The notes: a model not told the origin generated them from the letters alone. A DNA stretch of 64,000 nucleotides from an uncultured Chloroflexia bacterium (GCA_963843335.1 CAWJKF010000003.1:18207-82206); one strand, 5' to 3'; shown: positions 1-10,092, counted from the first letter of the stretch. Numbers and translations: made by a program.

Positions 1-230
1 AGCGCGGGGCGACGATGCAGGGTGACCTGGTCCGGCGGGCACAGCACGGCGACGCGGATGCGTTCGACGTCCTCGCGGGTGACGCGTACGACCGGCTGTT
101 CGCCCTCGCCCATCGGATCCTCAGGGATGGGGACAGCAGCGACGATGCCGTGCAGGAGTGCCTGGTGATGGCTTGTCGAGCGCGCATGCGCGCGTGCGTT
201 CGACCCGCCAGCGCCCGGGCTGGCTGGTGA
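1..230 (+). pseudogene. ECF sigma-70 region-2 fragment; the 5' end lies outside the window and the ORF stops before any region 3/4
   Basis: ORF 15..230 translates to a sigma-70_r2-like pattern (DAFDVL...YDRLFALAHRIL...DAVQECLV). It then hits a stop with no downstream HTH region. Confidence 0.3.
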
Positions 231-247
231 CACTCAGAGGTGGCACG

Positions 248-1423
248 ATGGAAACGACCTGGCGCGCACACGATGTGCACCTGCCAGCACGACTGCAGGT
301 CGCGCTGCTGATCCTGACGCTCGTGCTCGCGGCTGTGGCCGGAGCAGTCCTGGTGGGGGCGCAGCTCCTGAGGACGGCCGGTCCTGATCGGTTGCCCCCC
401 GTCATGCCCGCGTTCGCCATGCCGCCGACCGCGTGCCCCGAGGGTACGGACCTGCCCAGTGGCGACATCGCGACCATCGCGGGGACCGGCGTGATCGCCA
501 GCACGGGCGACGGCGGTGCCGCGCTCGCGGCCGCGATCGCATCCTCATACAACATGATCGCGGTCGGCCCCGACGATGCCATCTACCTGTCGGACAGCGC
601 CGTCATCCGGCGCATCACGTCCGACGGCCGCATCACGGCGGTGGCCGGACCAACGACCCACGCGCCGTTCGTGACCCCGACAGGCCTGGCGTTCGCGGCG
701 GACGGCAGCCTCTACATCGCGGACTTCACGACGAGCCACATCTGGAAGCTCGCTGAGGACGGATCGATCACCAGCGTCGCTGGTACGGGTGTCAGTGGCT
801 CGGCAGGCAACGACGGACCGGCCACCGAAGCCCAGATCCAGCCCGCGCAGGTCGCTGTCGGTCCGCTTGGTGACCTCTACTTCGATGACTCCAACAGCTA
901 CCGGACCGTCGACCCCGCGGGCATCATCCGGGCGTTCGCCGGGACCGGCCAGGTCGGCTTCTCTGGCGACGATGGCCCGGCGGTCGACGCCAGGCTTGCC
1001 ACCAATGTGCTGGGGGTCGTCGCCGATGCGCAGGGCAACGTCTATGTCGGGGACCCGGACAACCATCGCATCCGGCGGGTGGATTCAGCGGGCATCGTCA
1101 CCACGTTCGCAGGGACCGGCCTGCCGGGCTACTCGGGTGACGGCGATCAGGCCGCGCAGGCTCAGATCGACCATCCGGTCACCATCACGGTCGACGATCT
1201 GGGCAACGTGTACTTCGCCGACCAGGGCAACTCGACGGTCCGGATGGTGGACCCGCACCGGGTGATCAGAACGGTTGCCGGCACAGGCCGCCCGGGTTTC
1301 TCCGGGGACTGCGGGCCAGCGACCACGGCGCAGCTCAACCGCCCTTACGGCCTCGCGGTCCGGGATGGCGTGGTGCTCATCGGGGACGAGGGGAACCACC
1401 GCATCCGCATGGTCGTGCCGTAG
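248..1423 (+). CDS. NHL-repeat protein with an N-terminal transmembrane anchor
   Basis: Start METTW within ORF 158..1423. Hydrophobic helix LQVALLILTLVLAAVAG. Repeated NHL signatures (GDPDNHRIRRVD, YFADQGNSTVRMVD, GDEGNHRIRMV). Confidence 0.7.
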   Translation: METTWRAHDVHLPARLQVALLILTLVLAAVAGAVLVGAQLLRTAGPDRLPPVMPAFAMPPTACPEGTDLPSGDIATIAGTGVIASTGDGGAALAAAIASSYNMIAVGPDDAIYLSDSAVIRRITSDGRITAVAGPTTHAPFVTPTGLAFAADGSLYIADFTTSHIWKLAEDGSITSVAGTGVSGSAGNDGPATEAQIQPAQVAVGPLGDLYFDDSNSYRTVDPAGIIRAFAGTGQVGFSGDDGPAVDARLATNVLGVVADAQGNVYVGDPDNHRIRRVDSAGIVTTFAGTGLPGYSGDGDQAAQAQIDHPVTITVDDLGNVYFADQGNSTVRMVDPHRVIRTVAGTGRPGFSGDCGPATTAQLNRPYGLAVRDGVVLIGDEGNHRIRMVVP

Positions 1424-2519: not shown

Positions 2520-3272
2520 TCAGGCCGCGGCGTCCCCTCGATCCGGCGGCGCCTGGGTGGCCACCACCGTCCGTCCGGCCCGGGGTGCCGGTCGGGTCGC
2601 GGCGGGTGCCCGGCGGAGGGCGACCGCGAGCACGATGCGGTAGATGGTCAGGAAGACCACCGTCGCGGTCAGCAGCAGGTAGCCCCAGAAGGCCCACGGG
2701 GCGCCCGTGTCGGTGCCCGCCATGAGGCCATGTGCCGTGGCGCCCAGGAAGGCGAGGAACGTCACGTAGTGGAGGGTCCGCCAGCGCTTCTGGCCGATGC
2801 GCTTGCGCAGCGAGAAGCTCGCGATGACGACGATGGTGAGCACCAGCGACAGCTGCCCGAGGCCGACCCACAGCGGCCGGTAGGGGCCCGTGAAGGGGAG
2901 CAGCAGCTCGGCGATGGTGAACGGCACGCTGTGGTCGAGCGTGAGCATCGCGGCGTGGACGAGGGCGAGCCCGAGGCCGATGGCCGAGAGGTCCTGGTGG
3001 AGCGTGAACGAGACCGTCCGGTGGGCGAACGCGTCGAGGATGCCGGTCGAGAGCAGCAGGCCGTAGATGACCGAGCCGGCGAGCACGAGGTAGGCGAGGA
3101 GGCCGAGCAGCCGGGTGGCGTACCAGGGGATGCGCTCCTGCTCCGCGGTCACCCAGGTGCGCACGGCATCGAGGGCACCGCCGCCGGTCGCGGCGAGGAC
3201 CACGACGATGGCCGCGAGGAACACCGCCCAGCGGAGCGGCCGGGTCCGGGGGTCGAGGCCGCGGTACCTCAT
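2520..3272 (-). CDS. ferric-reductase-like (MsrQ-like) di-heme transmembrane protein
   Basis: 6-TM protein with paired His on two helices (HQDLSAIGLGLALVHAAM and HYVTFLAFLGATAHGLMAG), typical of the ferric reductase transmembrane domain. Overlaps the apbE stop by 4 bp. Confidence 0.7.
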   Translation of the reverse strand: MRYRGLDPRTRPLRWAVFLAAIVVVLAATGGGALDAVRTWVTAEQERIPWYATRLLGLLAYLVLAGSVIYGLLLSTGILDAFAHRTVSFTLHQDLSAIGLGLALVHAAMLTLDHSVPFTIAELLLPFTGPYRPLWVGLGQLSLVLTIVVIASFSLRKRIGQKRWRTLHYVTFLAFLGATAHGLMAGTDTGAPWAFWGYLLLTATVVFLTIYRIVLAVALRRAPAATRPAPRAGRTVVATQAPPDRGDAAA

Positions 3273-4273
3273 GCCAGCCAGCCGAGGGTGCCGGGGGTCG
3301 CGACCGTGCCGCCGGAGTCCAGCAGCAGGATGGCGCCCCGGACGCCGGACCGGTCGAGGAGGGCGAGGGCGTCGTCCGAGCCGGCGATGACCGCCGCCTT
3401 GGCCAGCACCTCCGCCGCGCGGGCACTGCCCGCGATGACCGTCGCCTGGACGACATCGGTGACCGCGGGCCGGCGCGTCCGGGGATCGATGAGATGGTGG
3501 CGCGCGGAGCCGTCGGCGCCGGCCGGCCAGCGATGGACGCTCGTGCCCGATGTGGCGATGCCGAGCAGCGGGCCCGCGATGCGCTCGTCGAGGCGGATGA
3601 CGGCGAGCGGACCCGGGGCACCGGGGCGGGGGTCGGCGACCGCGATGTCCCAGGCGCTGTCCGCGTCGATGCGCAGCGCGATGTCCCCGTCGGCATCGAC
3701 CATCGCCGCGGGGTAGCGCCCGAGGAGCGCGAGGGCCCGGTCGGCGATCCAGCCCTTGGCCACGCCGTCGAGGTCGAAGCGGCAGCGCCCCCGGCGCACC
3801 ACCCGCCCGCCGCGGGCCCCGCGGACCAGGTGCCAGCGGGGTCGTGCCGGGTCATCGACGGGTCCCGCGTGGGTCATGTCGAGCCCCGACCCGGCCGCGA
3901 GGCGCGCGTCGAGGAGCGTCACGTCGAGGAGGCCGGGCGCGCTGTCGAGCGCCCGCTCGGCCCAGTCGAGCACCGCGGCGAGCGTCGGGCGGACCGGCGT
4001 CGATGGCCGGCCCGGGTCGCGGTTGAGTGCCGCGAGGTCGGAGGTCGTCGTGAAACGGGTGAGCCGGGCGGCCCAGCGGTCCACCCGGCGTGCCACGCGA
4101 TCGAGGTCCCGGGTCGCCTCGCCCGCATCGGGTGCACTCCCCGCGACCCGCATGTCGAGGCTGCCGCCCATGGCCGGCACGCTGAGCGTCCACTCCTCCC
4201 GGAGGAGCGGACCGGCTGCCGGGCTGGCCGTGTCAGCGAATGCCGCCACGCGCCACGCGGCTGCGATGGACAT
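3269..4273 (-). CDS. apbE: FAD:protein FMN transferase (ApbE family)
   Basis: ApbE motifs HHLIDPRTRRP and DLDGVAKGW, and the overall ApbE length. Confidence 0.8.
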   Translation of the reverse strand: MSIAAAWRVAAFADTASPAAGPLLREEWTLSVPAMGGSLDMRVAGSAPDAGEATRDLDRVARRVDRWAARLTRFTTTSDLAALNRDPGRPSTPVRPTLAAVLDWAERALDSAPGLLDVTLLDARLAAGSGLDMTHAGPVDDPARPRWHLVRGARGGRVVRRGRCRFDLDGVAKGWIADRALALLGRYPAAMVDADGDIALRIDADSAWDIAVADPRPGAPGPLAVIRLDERIAGPLLGIATSGTSVHRWPAGADGSARHHLIDPRTRRPAVTDVVQATVIAGSARAAEVLAKAAVIAGSDDALALLDRSGVRGAILLLDSGGTVATPGTLGWLA

Positions 4274-4279
4274 CGGGTC

Positions 4280-4732
4280 TTAGCCTCCCGATTGCCGGGT
4301 CCTGGTCACCACCTTGTGGATCACGACCCGCCGGGTCTGCGCCGGGTGCCCGGCGACCCGGGTGACGACCACACGGGGCGGCGGCACCGCGCCAGCGATG
4401 ACCTTGGCGCCCTTCGGGGCCTTCTCGCCTGGCTTCAGATGGACGTACCGGACCTTGTGCTTGACGATGACCGCGGGTCGGGCCGTGGCGATGGTCTCGA
4501 TCGAGGCGGCGTCGGCGGCACCATCGGCGGCGATGGCATCGGCCGACGGCGCGGGGAACCGGACCAGCCCGGCGGCCATGATGGAGACGGCCGCGATGGT
4601 CCCGGCCCCGAGGGCGAGGCGCATCGGCCGGGGATCGGGCCGCGCCTTGGGAGCGGCCGGGGCAGGGTGGAGGGCGGTCGGCGCCGACCGAGGCGCCGCA
4701 GCCGGGGCCGGGCGTGGGTCCTCGCCGGCCAT
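4280..4732 (-). CDS. exported/membrane-anchored Lys/Val-rich protein, paralogous to the upstream gene
   Basis: Start ATG overlaps the upstream stop (TGATG coupling at 4730-4734). Hydrophobic segment TIAAVSIMAAGLV. Repeated VxHKVV/KV motifs shared with 4732..5142. Confidence 0.45.
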   Translation of the reverse strand: MAGEDPRPAPAAAPRSAPTALHPAPAAPKARPDPRPMRLALGAGTIAAVSIMAAGLVRFPAPSADAIAADGAADAASIETIATARPAVIVKHKVRYVHLKPGEKAPKGAKVIAGAVPPPRVVVTRVAGHPAQTRRVVIHKVVTRTRQSGG

Positions 4733-5142
4733 CAGTCGTCACCGCCGTCGTGCTCGCCACCACCGTCATGCTCGTGGCCGTCGTCGTCGCCCTCGTCGTC
4801 GCCGTGGTGCTTGCTTGGCACGACCTTGGTCACATGCACGACCTTGACCTTCGGACGCTGCGTGGCGGCCGGGGTCGGGGCACGCTTGGTGACGTGGATG
4901 ACCTTCGGCTTGGGCGCGGGACGGACGTAGACCGTCGTGGTCTCGACACGCGTGATGGGCTTGATGGAGGCGGCGGGAGTGGCAGGCGCCGCCAGCACGG
5001 CTGGGTCGGTGACTGATGCCAGGTCCAGCTGCTCGGCGTTGGCCGGGGCTGCCGTTGGCCCCAGGCCAGTGGCCGCGAAGCCGATAGCCAGGATCGCGGC
5101 AGCAGCTACGCTGCCAAGGATGACGGCGAGGCGGTGGATCAT
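4732..5142 (-). CDS. exported protein with a His/Asp/Gly-rich acidic C-terminal tail (putative metal-binding)
   Basis: N-terminal signal/TM (LAVILGSVAAAAILAIGFAA). KVIHVTK/KVKVVHVTK repeats. C-terminus HHGDDEGDDDGHEHDGGGEHDGGDD. Confidence 0.5.
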   Translation of the reverse strand: MIHRLAVILGSVAAAAILAIGFAATGLGPTAAPANAEQLDLASVTDPAVLAAPATPAASIKPITRVETTTVYVRPAPKPKVIHVTKRAPTPAATQRPKVKVVHVTKVVPSKHHGDDEGDDDGHEHDGGGEHDGGDD

Positions 5143-5288
5143 GGGGCCTCCGGGTTACAGCGAGTGTCTGACATAACCCTTGAGACGGCGCGTGGCCAGC
5201 GGGTTGCGCTTCCGCGGGAGGACCATCGGGCCGTGGGGCCGTGGCGGTTGGTACCGCGACCCCCATCGGGCGCCCCCCGCGCGGCGGC

Positions 5289-5609
5289 TCAGCGGGATCC
5301 GAGGAGCGTCTCGATCTCCGCGTGATACTGGCGGCCCCCCGAGGATCGAAGCAACCACTCCAGGTAGCCGCGGTCCTGCGTCGCGAGCTGGTTCAAGGAC
5401 CAGCCGGCATATCGCCCGAAGCCGAGGATGCTGACGCCGACTGGCGACGGTGTCGCCTCCCGCCGTGTCTCCGGGATCGGATGCGGCGACCGGGCGGCGC
5501 CCGGGTCGACAGTCAGCGGCACGGCTATCCCGTGCTCCAGGAGAGACGGCCCGTCGTGCCGTGGGCGCCGGTGTTCGCGGAAGAGCCCTGGAATGCCGTG
5601 TCGACCCAT
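5289..5609 (-). CDS. small DUF3820-like protein (start uncertain)
   Basis: C-terminal FGRYAGWSLNQLATQDRGYLEWLL resembles the DUF3820 / exonuclease-X C-terminal-like motif. The N-terminal part of the ORF is low-complexity. Confidence 0.25.
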   Translation of the reverse strand: MGRHGIPGLFREHRRPRHDGPSLLEHGIAVPLTVDPGAARSPHPIPETRREATPSPVGVSILGFGRYAGWSLNQLATQDRGYLEWLLRSSGGRQYHAEIETLLGSR

Positions 5610-6046
5610 GTCGGGAATGTCTCCTGTCGCCTTGGGCCGCCGATGACCGGGGACCACCTCACACAAGGGATGAGACGAGATGCCGTGGATGAGGTGCATC
5701 AGGCGTGGGGTACGTTCGGCCCACAGCACGGCGACGTTCGTCCGGGGTCGTGCTGATCGCATGGTGCGGACGTGCGAAGCCGGCGGACTCGTAGACATCA
5801 GGACTACCTCGCCCAGACCGCCAACGGATCCATCGTCGCGGTACCCGGGAGCAGCCACCTCCAGGACGATCCAGAGAGGCGGTCGCCAGGCCATCCGTAG
5901 CCTTGTCGCGACCGTCACGGGCGGCTGAGCGAGGGCCGGACGCGCACCCTCGATCTGCCTCTTGACCGGCCCGGGCTCGAGGACGATAGTCGCGCCTTCA
6001 CCCCTGCCGCTCCCCGGCAGGGTCGTCCGTAGCCTGAGGCATCCCC

Positions 6047-6712
6047 ATGTCCATCGGCCGAACCATCTCGTTGCGACGCCACCTCCCAGCCAGGGTGACC
6101 GGGATCGCCGGCGTGCTGTTCGCCGCCACCCTCCTCGCAGCCGGGCCGCTGCAGGCAGCTTCCCCGACGCAATATGGCGTGAACCTCGTCAAGAACGGTG
6201 GCGCCGAGAACCGCCTGAATAGCTGGGACCCGTTCCTGGCCTTCAAGACGCACAAGTACGGCGCGGCGGGCTTTGGCTTGCCATCCAAGCACGCCAGCAA
6301 CCAGATCGGTGGCGGCACCCGGTTCTTCCTCTCGGGCGAATTCGACAACGCCTATTCGCAGTGCCCGGAAGCCGACCAGACCGTCAAGCTCACGGGCATC
6401 GGCTCGGCCATCGACCACGGCCACGTCAAGGTGTACCTGAGCGCCTATGCCGGCACCGATGGCGCTGCGGACATCCACGCGCACGTCGACCTCTACTTCC
6501 GGAACGGCAACAACCATTCGGTGAGTGGCAGCGACTTCCACAAGCAGGCTGTCAGCACCAACGAGAAGTACAAGCACCTCACCGCGTCCAAGGTGCTGGC
6601 ACCTGGCACCCGCACCCTCCGTGTCCGTCTCTCCGCTGACGGCGACTCCACGCTCGCGGGCGACTGCTACGCGTTCTGGGACAAGGTCTCGGTCAAGCTC
6701 AAGCACGTCTGA
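6047..6712 (+). CDS. secreted protein of unknown function (signal peptide; gene looks lower in GC than its surroundings)
   Basis: Signal peptide AGVLFAATLLAAGPLQAA. Lys/Asn-rich mature part with many A/T-ending codons, unlike neighbouring genes. Possible beta-sandwich carbohydrate-binding-like fold, not confirmed. Confidence 0.6.
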   Translation: MSIGRTISLRRHLPARVTGIAGVLFAATLLAAGPLQAASPTQYGVNLVKNGGAENRLNSWDPFLAFKTHKYGAAGFGLPSKHASNQIGGGTRFFLSGEFDNAYSQCPEADQTVKLTGIGSAIDHGHVKVYLSAYAGTDGAADIHAHVDLYFRNGNNHSVSGSDFHKQAVSTNEKYKHLTASKVLAPGTRTLRVRLSADGDSTLAGDCYAFWDKVSVKLKHV

Positions 6713-7534: not shown

Positions 7535-7903
7535 CTACACCTGCTTGCAGATCGCGAACGTCTTCATGTGGTGGACCTGCCCGCTGCCATCGTTGTAGGC
7601 CGTGCCCTGCCATCCGTCGTCCGGGAAGATGTCGGCGTCGGACCCATCGATGGGGAAGCCGTCGTGCAGCTCGAGATGCGTGTCGGCACCATCGATGTCG
7701 ATGCCCCCGCCCGTGACGCGCGTGCCGCTGGGCCAGCGGACCGTGGTCGTGGCGCTCGTACCGTCCGGCACCGCCGTCCGGGTCCCGACCTTGACCACGT
7801 ACGTCCCGTGCTTCGCGCACACGGCCGTGACGGTCATCGTGACCGGAGCCGTCGAGCCGTTGCCGGCGATACCGAACCAGGCGTCATCGATCTTGATTCG
7901 CAT
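7535..7903 (-). CDS. hypothetical protein
   Basis: Start MRIKIDDAW inside ORF 7535..8032. GC3-rich, Thr/Gly-rich globular composition. Confidence 0.35.
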   Translation of the reverse strand: MRIKIDDAWFGIAGNGSTAPVTMTVTAVCAKHGTYVVKVGTRTAVPDGTSATTTVRWPSGTRVTGGGIDIDGADTHLELHDGFPIDGSDADIFPDDGWQGTAYNDGSGQVHHMKTFAICKQV

Positions 7904-8316
7904 CGGCACCGTCCGCCGGCTCCGATGCGCCGACCTCGACCGAGTGGTCACCGCCGTCGGTCCCGACACCGCCATCCACCGCACTGGGGTGGCTGGCGGT
8001 ACAGGGCACCCCGCCGGGTGTGACGCCGTCACCGGTGCTGCTGCCGTCGGGCAGGCCCTTGGCGATCGTCGCGGCGATCAGGAACCGCCGATGCGGCCTA
8101 CCGTTACCTCCGGACCCGTCGCCGGGGAGACACTGGCTCGCGCCGCAGCGTGGCTGTGCTGTCCTCTCATCTGGGTCGGCTGGGATCGGCAGACTATGCG
8201 GCCCTTGGGCCGGCGTCAAGGGTGATCCCGGCGCCGGCGAACCCGACCTCCGCCGCGCCGCCCGACGGCGCGTCAGCCGCCGGCCCGACCCGGTGGTCAA
8301 CGGTGGTACGAGGCGG

Positions 8317-9195
8317 CTACATCGATCGGAACGAGCGATCCTCATCGGTGACGAGCCGATACAGCTGTCGCTGGCCCGCGAGGCCCTTGAGCTCGTGGAC
8401 GCCTGCGTCCGCGAGCAGCAGCCCGGAACCCTCCAGCAGGTCGTGGGTGGTGGATGAGACCAGGACGTCGTCCGCGTCGGCCACGGACATGACGCGCGCT
8501 GCGGCATGGACCGCGACGCCACGGGCATCCTGGCCCACGAACTCGACCTCGCCCGTGTGGATGCCGACCCGGATGGCGATGCCCAGGGCGTGTGCCGCGG
8601 TCGTCATGGCTGCCCCGCAGCGGACCGCGCGGGTGGCGCCATCGAAGACGGCCAGGAAGCCATCGCCGGTGGTCTTGACCTCCCGGCCGCGGTGCATGTT
8701 GAGCTGCTCGCGCATCAGCCGGTTGTGCTCGAGTAGCAGGTCACGCCAACGCGAGTCGCCGACCCGGCCGAGCATCCCTGTCGAGTCGACGATGTCCGAG
8801 AACAGGATGGTGGCCACGGTCCGCTCGCCGGACGCATCGAGCATCGACGTGATGGGCCGTCCGCTCTGCGATTCGATGGTGATCCAGGGCACATCCCCGA
8901 CCACCCAGGCATCGTGGCCCGGTGGGATCTCGTAGACACCGCCCGGGCCGATGTCCATCGTCTGCCCATCCTCCATGACCACGCGGCACACCCCTGACAC
9001 CGAGAATCCCAGGTGATGGATGGGACAGCTCTGGGCGCCCATGAGCGGGCCCAGGTCGACTGACCATCGCCAGCCGGGTTCGAATGTGGCGTGCGCGATG
9101 ACCGCCTCGCCCATCTGGACCGTCTCGAAGCGTGCCTTCGGGACCTCGCGGACATCATCCGGCTCGTCGAAGTGCTTCACCTGCAAGCGTGGCAT
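8317..9195 (-). CDS. cupin-domain / class III adenylate-guanylate cyclase fusion protein
   Basis: Start MPRLQVKHF. Cupin_2-like N-terminus (ATFEPGWRWS...HHLGFSVSGVCRVV). Cyclase catalytic core (ILFSDIVDST...KTTGDGFLAVFD...GIHTGEV). Confidence 0.75.
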   Translation of the reverse strand: MPRLQVKHFDEPDDVREVPKARFETVQMGEAVIAHATFEPGWRWSVDLGPLMGAQSCPIHHLGFSVSGVCRVVMEDGQTMDIGPGGVYEIPPGHDAWVVGDVPWITIESQSGRPITSMLDASGERTVATILFSDIVDSTGMLGRVGDSRWRDLLLEHNRLMREQLNMHRGREVKTTGDGFLAVFDGATRAVRCGAAMTTAAHALGIAIRVGIHTGEVEFVGQDARGVAVHAAARVMSVADADDVLVSSTTHDLLEGSGLLLADAGVHELKGLAGQRQLYRLVTDEDRSFRSM

Positions 9196-9286
9196 GTCCC
9201 GAGTATGCGCGTCGCCTATGCGCCTGCGGCAGTCCCAGGGCGACCCCGAGCGCCGGGGCGTGCCCGGCTGTGCCAGCATCCGCCCC

Positions 9287-9511
9287 ATGGTCGACCCGAC
9301 GCTCATCTCCGCCGCAGGGGCCTGGACCGGCAACGTCGACTTCGGTGACCTCGGCATCGGTGGCCGATGGGCAGATGTCGCGGTCGCGTCGCTGAGCCTT
9401 GACTGGGGCTTCGGGGAGGGGCACCAGCAGGAGCTGTTCGATGCCTATGGCATCGACCCGGATGCGGAACGGATCCGCTACTATCGGGCGCTCTGGGAGC
9501 TCGAGTCATGA
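9287..9511 (+). pseudogene. C-terminal fragment of an aminoglycoside phosphotransferase (APH) family gene
   Basis: VDFGDLGIGGRWADVAVASL...LFDAYGI..DAERIRYYRALWEL follows the APH(3') C-terminal pattern (IDxGRLGVADRYQD...LYGI...RIAFYRLLDE). The N-terminal two thirds, including the HGD catalytic loop, are absent; upstream sequence is occupied by the cyclase gene on the other strand. Confidence 0.45.
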
Positions 9512-9603: not shown

Positions 9604-10092
9604 ATGTCGTACACGATCCGTGCTCTCACTGCGATGGTCGCGATCGCGCTCATGGCAGCCCTGGTCACCGTCGCCCCGGCCGCCGGCCAGTCACCGATGG
9701 CGTCCATGCCCGGGACCCCCAGCGCGGCACCCTGTGCTTCGCCGATGGTCGGCCCGTCGCCGATGGCCCCCGCGGCATCGATGGTCGCCACGTCGCTGGC
9801 ACCAAGCCTGGCGACTCCCTGCGTCTCTCCGGCACCGGTGGCCGCTGCGGCCGCAGTCTCCATCAAGGACTTCTCCTTCCAGCCGGCGACCATCAGCGTG
9901 CCGGTCGGCGGCACCGTCACCTGGACGAACAACGACACCACGGGGCATACCGTCACCGCCGACGATGGCTCGTTCGACAGTGGGACCGTCTCGCCCGGGG
10001 CGACCTTCAGCCAGACGTTCGCGACGGCGGGCACGTTCACGTACCACTGCAACATCCATCCGTCGATGACGGCATCCATCACGGTGCAGTAG
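9604..10092 (+). CDS. secreted cupredoxin (amicyanin/pseudoazurin-like type-1 copper protein)
   Basis: Signal peptide plus Ala/Pro-rich linker. Copper ligands H (TGHTV), C-x2-H-x2-M (YHCNIHPSM). Confidence 0.75.
   Translation: MSYTIRALTAMVAIALMAALVTVAPAAGQSPMASMPGTPSAAPCASPMVGPSPMAPAASMVATSLAPSLATPCVSPAPVAAAAAVSIKDFSFQPATISVPVGGTVTWTNNDTTGHTVTADDGSFDSGTVSPGATFSQTFATAGTFTYHCNIHPSMTASITVQ

Follow-up and report, generated by a model that had tools for sequence, protein, structure and literature searches.

An apbE gene cluster of Limnocylindria encoding a predicted bis-heme membrane protein and two families of small proteins in place of a canonical flavin acceptor

What does an ApbE-type flavin transferase modify when no protein encoded around it carries the usual target motif? 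This question is raised by a gene cluster in a 64,000-nucleotide stretch of DNA from an uncultured Chloroflexia bacterium (GCA_963843335.1, CAWJKF010000003.1:18207-82206; G+C content ~70%), referred to here in its full length as the window. Four consecutive open reading frames (ORFs) on its minus strand encode, in order of transcription, two small proteins (P1 and P2), an ApbE-family FAD:protein FMN transferase (FAD, flavin adenine dinucleotide; FMN, flavin mononucleotide) and a ferric-reductase-domain membrane protein (FRD). An earlier note on the sequence had placed four tightly packed genes at the same positions and had identified them correctly. We lean towards the view that the cluster is a lineage-specific variant of the MsrQ-like, flavinylation-associated systems for transmembrane electron transfer.

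Conserved gene order and the membrane protein

A scan of one genome per species gave 25 loci; L026, L027 and the more distant L029-L031 were added. All 25 were from Chloroflexota, labelled as Chloroflexia or as Ca. Limnocylindrales metagenome-assembled genomes (MAGs), with up to three loci per genome. P2, ApbE and FRD were found by tblastn in this order in every one of the 25 loci, with P2 identity of 38-91%. P1 was found in most, and a P1-like ORF (helix, VYVKPAP, acidic DD tail) was located manually in each remaining locus. The order P1-P2-ApbE-FRD was present in all 27 Limnocylindria loci and in the three distant loci. The arrangement, whose conservation across related genomes the earlier note had proposed to check, is retained down to 38% P2 identity. 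Such conservation of gene order is far beyond chance, and the lineage that carries the cluster is class Ca. Limnocylindria of Chloroflexota. L001 is the ortholog of the window copy, and L002 is a paralog in the same MAG, linked to a two-component system.

At the DNA level, the stop codon of P1 and the start codon of P2 have one base in common (TGATG), and the ApbE stop and FRD start overlap by 4 nucleotides (ATGA). Coupling by overlap, as first proposed for the whole operon, applies to these two junctions and not to the third: P2 and ApbE are separated by 6 nucleotides between TAA and ATG, and a GGGAGG Shine-Dalgarno sequence lies within the 3′ end of P2. The end of ApbE and the start of FRD coincide in several other loci, as judged from tblastn coordinates.

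The cluster resembles the MsrQ-like systems of Meheust et al. (2021, eLife, PMC8238504), in which a PF01794-type six-helix bis-heme protein is clustered with apbE and NAD-binding (PF00175) or NuoF-like cytosolic donors are optional; such donors are found here in L026, L006, L023, L024 and L029. Meheust et al. (2021) looked for a PF01794-type gene within 5 genes of apbE, and in our cluster the two genes are adjacent and overlapping. In contrast to those systems, there is no FMN_bind gene and no [S/T]GA[S/T] motif, P1 and P2 being present instead; the host is Limnocylindria rather than Actinobacteria; and there is close linkage to a two-component system. The published survey (PMC8238504) was restricted to clusters in which ApbE, FMN_bind, DUF2271 or DUF3570 has a signal peptide or lipidation site. 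Because ApbE in our cluster has no signal peptide and FMN_bind, DUF2271 and DUF3570 are absent, the cluster would fall outside that survey. The first description of the locus, as an extracytosolic flavinylation and electron-transfer module, is right in its architecture, which fits the MsrQ-like class (PMC8238504); the term "extracytosolic" does not suit an ApbE without signal peptide, lipobox or membrane helix. Apart from P1 and P2, every component comes from a known family, and the system as a whole follows the logic of the described class. Anatomy and context give good support to an electron conduit in which P1 and P2 take the place of the FMN_bind protein.

FRD scored 21.2 bits on PF01794, under the gathering score of 28; PF01794 is precomputed for many FRD homologs at 60-78% identity. 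H92 and H106 in helix 3 and H168 and H181 in helix 5 were invariant in 33 sequences, with spacings of H-x13-H and H-x12-H. The AlphaFold2 model of FRD (predicted local distance difference test score, pLDDT, 82.5) consisted of six long helices. Its top Foldseek matches in the PDB were SpNOX (8qta/8qt6, S. pneumoniae NADPH oxidase), STEAP1/2 and NOX5, with probability 1.0, modest E-values of 0.015-0.12 and template modelling scores of 0.43-0.51. The four invariant His residues, the six-helix model and the NOX/STEAP matches together rescue the assignment despite the sub-threshold PF01794 score. By alignment and model, FRD is a six-helix protein of the NOX/STEAP/MsrQ fold whose four invariant His residues are predicted heme ligands. 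The positive-inside rule suggests an N-in/C-in topology, in which the basic RKRIGQKRWR loop and the Arg-rich C-terminus would be cytosolic. S75/T76 and S88/T90 are conserved at the cytosolic ends of helices 2 and 3, respectively, with S88 one helical turn below H92.

FRD shares with NOX, SpNOX, STEAP and FRE proteins the six membrane helices and the His pairs 13 apart in helix 3 and 12 apart in helix 5. Unlike these proteins, it has no fused dehydrogenase domain; its donors, where present, are separate ferredoxin and FNR-like or NuoF-like proteins, and it is coupled to ApbE. Several FRD homologs are labelled "sulfoxide reductase heme-binding subunit YedZ" by JGI, and the membrane subunit of MsrPQ (YedYZ) comes from a common heme-binding superfamily. 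It is nevertheless highly improbable that the cluster is a periplasmic methionine-sulfoxide repair system of MsrPQ type. The molybdopterin MsrP/YedY gene is absent from the window operon and from the called genes of L026, L027, L029 and L031, the His spacing and best structural matches of FRD are of NOX/STEAP type, and MsrPQ includes neither ApbE nor P1/P2.

Two small protein families and the search for the flavin acceptor

P1 begins with MIHR, a hydrophobic helix and an AxA-like site (APANA|EQ). The alignment of its family (48 homologs) showed two conserved strands, TVYVRPAPKPKVIHVTKR and KVVHVT. The His/Asp-rich tail that had drawn attention to P1 has the sequence originally quoted, and what is conserved across the family is its acidic Gly/Asp/Glu character and the terminal DD; the number of His residues varies from 0 to 5, so a His-rich metal-binding tail is not a family feature.

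P2 consists of a variable Pro/Ala-rich N-terminal tail, a conserved RPDPRPxR, one hydrophobic helix, a variable acidic linker, a core, a very basic region and a C-terminal motif. The conserved core reads RYVxLKPGQKAPKGAKVI in the family alignment. We obtained 92 word-indexed homologs of P2 and, by exhaustive HMMER profile search of 1.84 billion representatives, 223 representatives, two giant low-complexity proteins being disregarded. All were small stand-alone proteins; none in this search was fused to a known domain. The most informative feature of P2, missed by the earlier note, is the near-invariant C-terminal motif T-x-Q-S-G. It takes the form T-[RK]-Q-S-G, and Q147, S148 and G149 are invariant in the family alignment. 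QSG followed by 0-4 residues ends 218 of 229 P2 relatives, and the rare variant tails TSG and QSA retain the Ser. Even at the distant loci L029 and L031 the tails read ...TTQSGTVLP and ...TTQSGKVVP.

Neither protein matched Pfam or NCBIfam at E-values up to 1, no precomputed Pfam domain was present among ~140 P1/P2 homologs, and comparison of the two family profiles with all PDB sequences gave chance-level matches only. As far as the searched literature shows, P1 and P2 represent two protein families not described before. Their proposed paralogy, weak in pairwise BLASTP (E = 0.047), was upheld at the level of family profiles (hhalign probability 94%, E = 1e-7); because the profiles align despite the marginal pairwise similarity, we consider P1 and P2 remote paralogs. 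Topology was predicted from charge counts in the 15 residues on either side of the helix. The N- and C-terminal flanks averaged +3.0 and -1.3 in P2 and +2.0 and -1.0 in P1, and N-in/C-out was predicted for 223/223 and 48/48 members, respectively. AlphaFold2 with 30 sequences gave no usable fold for P2 (pLDDT 59; core alone ~83), and because of this low confidence P2 was not put through fold search.

ApbE matched PF02424 at 127.9 bits (cut-off 25.6; E = 6.5e-37). Its best solved relatives are Treponema pallidum Ftp (Ftp_Tp, 4xdt) and the ApbE structures of Thermotoga maritima and Vibrio cholerae. The catalytic S240, R245 and H256 of Ftp_Tp (S241 and H257 in V. cholerae) are retained, with TSG, HRW and HHLIDP aligning to 4xdt, and the catalytic Ser, Arg and His are invariant across 24 members of the ApbE clade. 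First-sphere Mg ligands of Ftp_Tp are replaced: D284 by Glu, a conservative change, and T288 by Lys, which is not conservative. The resulting AE..AK pattern is invariant in the 24 clade members. With the D284A mutation, Ftp_Tp lost FAD pyrophosphatase as well as FMN transferase activity, and with T288A it lost the former (PMC4436053).

These substitutions, present throughout the clade at positions where Ala mutants of Ftp_Tp lose activity (PMC4436053), speak for an ApbE that is not a transferase and serves instead as a stable FAD-binding cytosolic subunit or flavin-delivery factor of an FRD complex. The translational coupling of apbE to FRD points in the same direction, as does the solvent exposure of the isoalloxazine ring in ApbE structures, noted in a review. 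We consider such a role quite improbable, as the Ser, Arg and His implicated in catalysis are kept. Glu can still ligate Mg, and we know of no ApbE that serves as a redox subunit.

Inspection of N-termini and hydropathy, with no dedicated signal-peptide predictor, revealed no signal peptide, lipobox or membrane helix in ApbE, either in the window or in 24 homologous loci. The reading frame in the window opens just 2 codons before the ATG. N-termini in the 24 loci were short, variable and non-hydrophobic, and the maximum 19-residue hydropathy was at most 1.74. Lacking an export signal and a membrane segment, the ApbE clade is therefore predicted to be cytosolic, and flavinylation would accordingly take place in the cytoplasm. 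Canonical ApbE enzymes are either secreted or held by a lipid anchor and flavinylate the last Ser/Thr of D-x-x-[S/T]-G-A-[S/T], but cytosolic ApbE enzymes exist, for example in Klebsiella, where specificity follows localisation (reviewed in PMC12052999). The Klebsiella pneumoniae enzyme, cytoplasmic and without a secretion signal like ours, flavinylates soluble fumarate reductase (PMC12052999). Its target, however, is a soluble enzyme with an FMN_bind domain and the canonical motif, whereas the partners encoded in our cluster are membrane proteins without the motif.

The earlier note had found no canonical FMN acceptor or flavinylation motif among the neighbours, and this observation stands. 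Neither an FMN_bind domain nor a D..[ST]G[AS][ST] motif was present in the four cluster proteins or in the products of other likely genes across the 64-kb window, and no FMN_bind acceptor gene was found among the called genes of L026, L027, L029 and L031. A six-frame motif search of the window gave three strict matches, all in frames without Pfam support. Looser matches in real window genes fell in unrelated enzymes and proteins (epimerases, a lipase, a peptidase and an FG-GAP protein) and were rejected. Two sites within the cluster were rejected as well. LDSGGT at the C-terminus of ApbE, a possible self-flavinylation site, aligns to an ordinary terminal strand of T. maritima ApbE and is not conserved. 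The invariant x-G-A-T in FRD helix 5 is membrane-buried, lies two residues before the heme ligand H181 and has no Ser/Thr or Asp upstream. The G-x-x-x-H-G spacing in this helix appears general to the family, as in NOX2 and Fre1.

The absence of a canonical acceptor from the cluster and the window would be explained if ApbE matured a protein of the usual FMN_bind, NQR or RNF type whose gene lies elsewhere, and apbE stood in the operon only incidentally. This is improbable in view of the gene order. Across all ~30 loci, including those where P2 identity falls to 38%, apbE is found between P2 and FRD; in genomes with paralogous copies, of which there are up to three, every copy has a separate apbE; and the end of apbE overlaps the start codon of FRD. 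Furthermore, NQR and RNF targets are flavinylated outside the cytoplasm (PMC12052999), yet this ApbE has no export signal.

By conservation and by gene adjacency (P2 is directly upstream of apbE), the strongest candidate acceptor in the cluster is the invariant Ser of the P2 C-terminal T-x-Q-S-G tail, which we propose tentatively. Flavinylation on an unstructured C-terminal extension has a precedent in FMN_red (Huang et al. 2024, PMC11334425). In both cases the acceptor or candidate Ser is on an unstructured C-terminal tail of a protein encoded beside apbE. The tails of FMN_red differ in that they carry canonical-like motifs and dock on a pre-existing flavin-binding fold, whereas no flavin-binding domain can be recognised in P2, whose motif is T-x-Q-S-G. 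The fuller proposal that the P2 tail Ser is a non-canonical flavinylation site, and P2 a new class of domain-less flavin carrier, a single-pass protein with FMN on a short tail that docks on the bis-heme FRD and acquires its flavin from a signal-less ApbE whose metal site is remodelled (Glu and Lys replacing Asp and Thr), is doubtful at present. If it is true, ApbE specificity extends beyond D-x-x-[S/T]-G-A-[S/T], and either the topology of P2 is unexpected or flavinylation precedes export.

The conserved cytosolic Ser/Thr residues of FRD beside the inner heme (S88/T90 or S75/T76) are an unlikely second choice of acceptor; what probability remains falls to a substrate encoded elsewhere or to a non-transferase role of ApbE. 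The FRD residues belong to another model, in which ApbE attaches FMN to FRD Ser/Thr near the inner heme, or to P2 on a part that faces the cytosol. The tethered flavin would serve for electron entry and replace the FAD site of NOX and STEAP proteins, with P1 and P2 left outside the cytoplasm as subunits that assist or bind substrate. Every locus has an ApbE of predicted cytosolic location, in keeping with known cytosolic ApbE enzymes; ApbE and FRD overlap at ATGA, and their end and start coincide in several other loci; a fused or adjacent dehydrogenase is missing in most loci; and S75/T76 and S88/T90 are conserved at the cytosolic helix ends. We nevertheless hold this model to be unlikely. The candidate sites in FRD are unlike the flavinylation motif, the invariant Ser of the P2 tail is left unexplained, and we know of no FRD-family protein that is flavinylated.

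Linked regulatory and electron-donor genes

In ~19 of the 27 loci, a divergently transcribed OmpR-type response regulator gene and a histidine kinase gene lie immediately upstream of P1. The best NCBIfam match of the response regulator was RppA (224 bits, cut-off 250), followed by the heavy-metal cztR/silR/copR subfamily, also below cut-off. Between the response regulator gene and P1 there is an intergenic box, CGCAATGG-N-TTCTTTGGAATCTCTCAyGC-N-CACAAGG, with a TGAGA..TCTCA inverted repeat. The box was defined from L002, L003, L004, L007, L008, L011, L012, L013, L016, L017, L026 and L027, and is a candidate binding site for the linked OmpR-type regulator. The two-component system is missing from the window copy and from L001, L005, L010, L014, L018 and L022, and the box was not found in the 64-kb window at up to 2 mismatches.

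A role in metal reduction or metal handling, suggested earlier on the basis of the P1 tail, has little ground. The His residues of the tail are not conserved, in contrast to its acidic character and DD ending, and this makes the idea weak; its other support is the regulator, which resembles the RppA and heavy-metal families below cut-off. The cluster has no linked transporter for iron or another metal. Metal handling is hinted at only by the acidic P1 tail and by the family resemblance of the regulator.

Candidate electron donors are encoded at some of the loci. L006, L023, L024 and L026 have in addition genes for an FdxA-like ferredoxin and an FNR-like protein (FAD_binding_6/NAD_binding_1). 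L029 has a second ApbE-FRD pair together with a NuoF-like protein (Complex1_51K/NADH_4Fe-4S) and a Fer4_15 ferredoxin, and L031 has an FNR-like gene. Most loci are without a fused or adjacent dehydrogenase. NAD-binding and NuoF-like cytosolic donors have been reported for MsrQ-like flavinylation clusters (PMC8238504), and the linked cytosolic NAD(P)H donor genes support electron flow from the cytosol to the outside.

In the proposed mechanism, cytosolic NAD(P)H or ferredoxin would supply electrons to the inner heme of FRD, from which they would move across to the outer heme. The outer heme would pass them to an extracytoplasmic P1/P2 assembly that would substitute for the secreted FMN_bind protein usual in such systems; the P1 tail is acidic and P2 strongly basic. 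The terminal acceptor could be a metal ion, O2 or a protein. ApbE would install covalent FMN at a non-canonical site, and the two-component system may switch the module on upon an envelope, redox or metal cue.

Several points count against this interpretation. A regular-expression search revealed D-x-x-[S/T]-G-A-[S/T] in no protein of the cluster, and the P2 tail, T-R-Q-S-G near the C-terminus, lacks the residue at the canonical acceptor position. This tail is predicted to be extracytoplasmic and ApbE to be cytosolic. With Lys in place of the Mg ligand T288 throughout the ApbE clade, the enzyme may not be active as a transferase. P2 has no confident fold by AlphaFold2, and the window copy has neither a two-component system nor a donor module nearby. 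Heme binding, flavin attachment and topology are all predictions from sequence and models.

Three further observations were made at the linked loci. The histidine kinase at L026:6718-8619 (minus strand) has a long insertion in its predicted external region, with acidic PEPGE(T/S)/DEPGES repeats whose composition is reminiscent of P1 tails. At L029:8001-14108, the distant cluster includes a third small membrane-anchored protein, rich in Ser, Gly and Thr and without a Pfam match; it ends in ...GRVTTGGS, has an internal GQVTTGGSG repeat and carries AGAT just after its helix. Just upstream of P1 at L005:6330-6520, L018:6410-6600 and L022:6400-6530 there are common nested inverted repeats, CTACCTGAGGG ... 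GGTTCCATC ... GATGGAACC ... CCCTCAGGTAG. These three loci are all without a two-component system, and the window upstream region is without the repeats. The L022 copy folds to -46.8 kcal/mol (z-score -2.35), and no Rfam match was found for the repeats in the three loci. They could be a 5′-untranslated-region element or an operator for a different regulator.

Window features and meaning of the cluster

The coordinates of the cluster features are given in Table 1. No recognisable promoter was found in the operon 5′ region, and promoter, terminator and Rfam scans across the operon region gave nothing informative.

Table 1. Features of the apbE cluster, in window coordinates
Feature	Coordinates	Strand	Description
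Operon 5′ region	5143..5288	-	GGAGG Shine-Dalgarno sequence 4 nt before the P1 ATG
P1	4732..5142	-	ORF, 136 aa; small bitopic or secreted protein; no Pfam or NCBIfam match
P1 C-terminal acidic tail	4735..4809	-	HHGDDEGDDDGHEHDGGGEHDGGDD, read directly from sequence
P2	4280..4732	-	ORF, 150 aa; bitopic protein; remote paralog of P1
P2 C-terminal motif	4283..4300	-	codons T-R-Q-S-G-G; family signature T-x-Q-S-G, 0-4 residues from C-terminus
ApbE-family FAD:protein FMN transferase	3269..4273	-	334 aa; PF02424; no export signal
FRD	2520..3272	-	250 aa; ferric-reductase-domain (MsrQ/NOX/STEAP-type) six-helix bis-heme b membrane protein (predicted)
FRD predicted heme-ligand His codons	H92 2997-2999; H106 2955-2957; H168 2769-2771; H181 2730-2732	-	

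On the same strand, 137 nucleotides downstream of FRD, the window encodes a MarC/NAAT-family membrane protein (1462-2382; PF01914, E = 4e-45). Its 306-residue ORF is probably over-extended at the 5′ end, because the Pfam match begins at residue 103. A MarC/NAAT gene adjoins the ortholog L001 too, but not the paralogous loci. Immediately upstream of the operon, also on the minus strand, an ORF (5289-5918) matches only ExoX-like_C, weakly and at its C-terminal end (16.3 bits, below cut-off), and L001 encodes a near-identical C-terminal sequence at the equivalent position upstream of P1.

Farther away, the plus strand encodes a secreted cupredoxin of the plastocyanin/azurin family (9604-10092; PF00127, E = 3.5e-11; PF13473), ~4.5 kb from the operon; its link to the cluster was not seen in the paralogous loci. 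Other genes are for a protein that has a class III adenylate/guanylate cyclase catalytic domain and whose N-terminal region is weakly cupin-like (8317-9357, minus strand; PF00211, E = 1.6e-16) and a membrane-anchored NHL-repeat/teneurin-NHL beta-propeller protein (158-1423, plus strand; PF25021, E = 8e-30; PF01436). Two ORFs, 6047-6712 (plus strand, with a signal-like N-terminus) and 7535-8032 (minus strand), have a coding-like G+C content at third codon positions of 0.88. Neither had a Pfam match, and 6047-6712 also had no NCBIfam match.

As far as the searched literature shows, four traits of the cluster are new: a canonical acceptor is missing; P1 and P2 form two new families with invariant termini; the ApbE clade has no signal peptide and its metal site is remodelled; and a two-component system is closely linked. 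Many bacterial systems of electron export depend on flavinylation by ApbE, and "orphan" apbE genomes, whose substrates are still to be found, make up ~4% of genomes (Meheust et al. 2021, PMC8238504). The cluster provides a concrete and testable orphan-apbE case, with a strictly conserved gene set in Limnocylindria, an abundant uncultured lineage of soil and freshwater. The linked two-component system offers a route to the physiological signal. Identity of the acceptor would either broaden the sequence specificity of ApbE, which is relevant to flavin-tagging biotechnology, or reveal covalent FMN on the cytoplasmic side of NOX/STEAP-like heme conduits.

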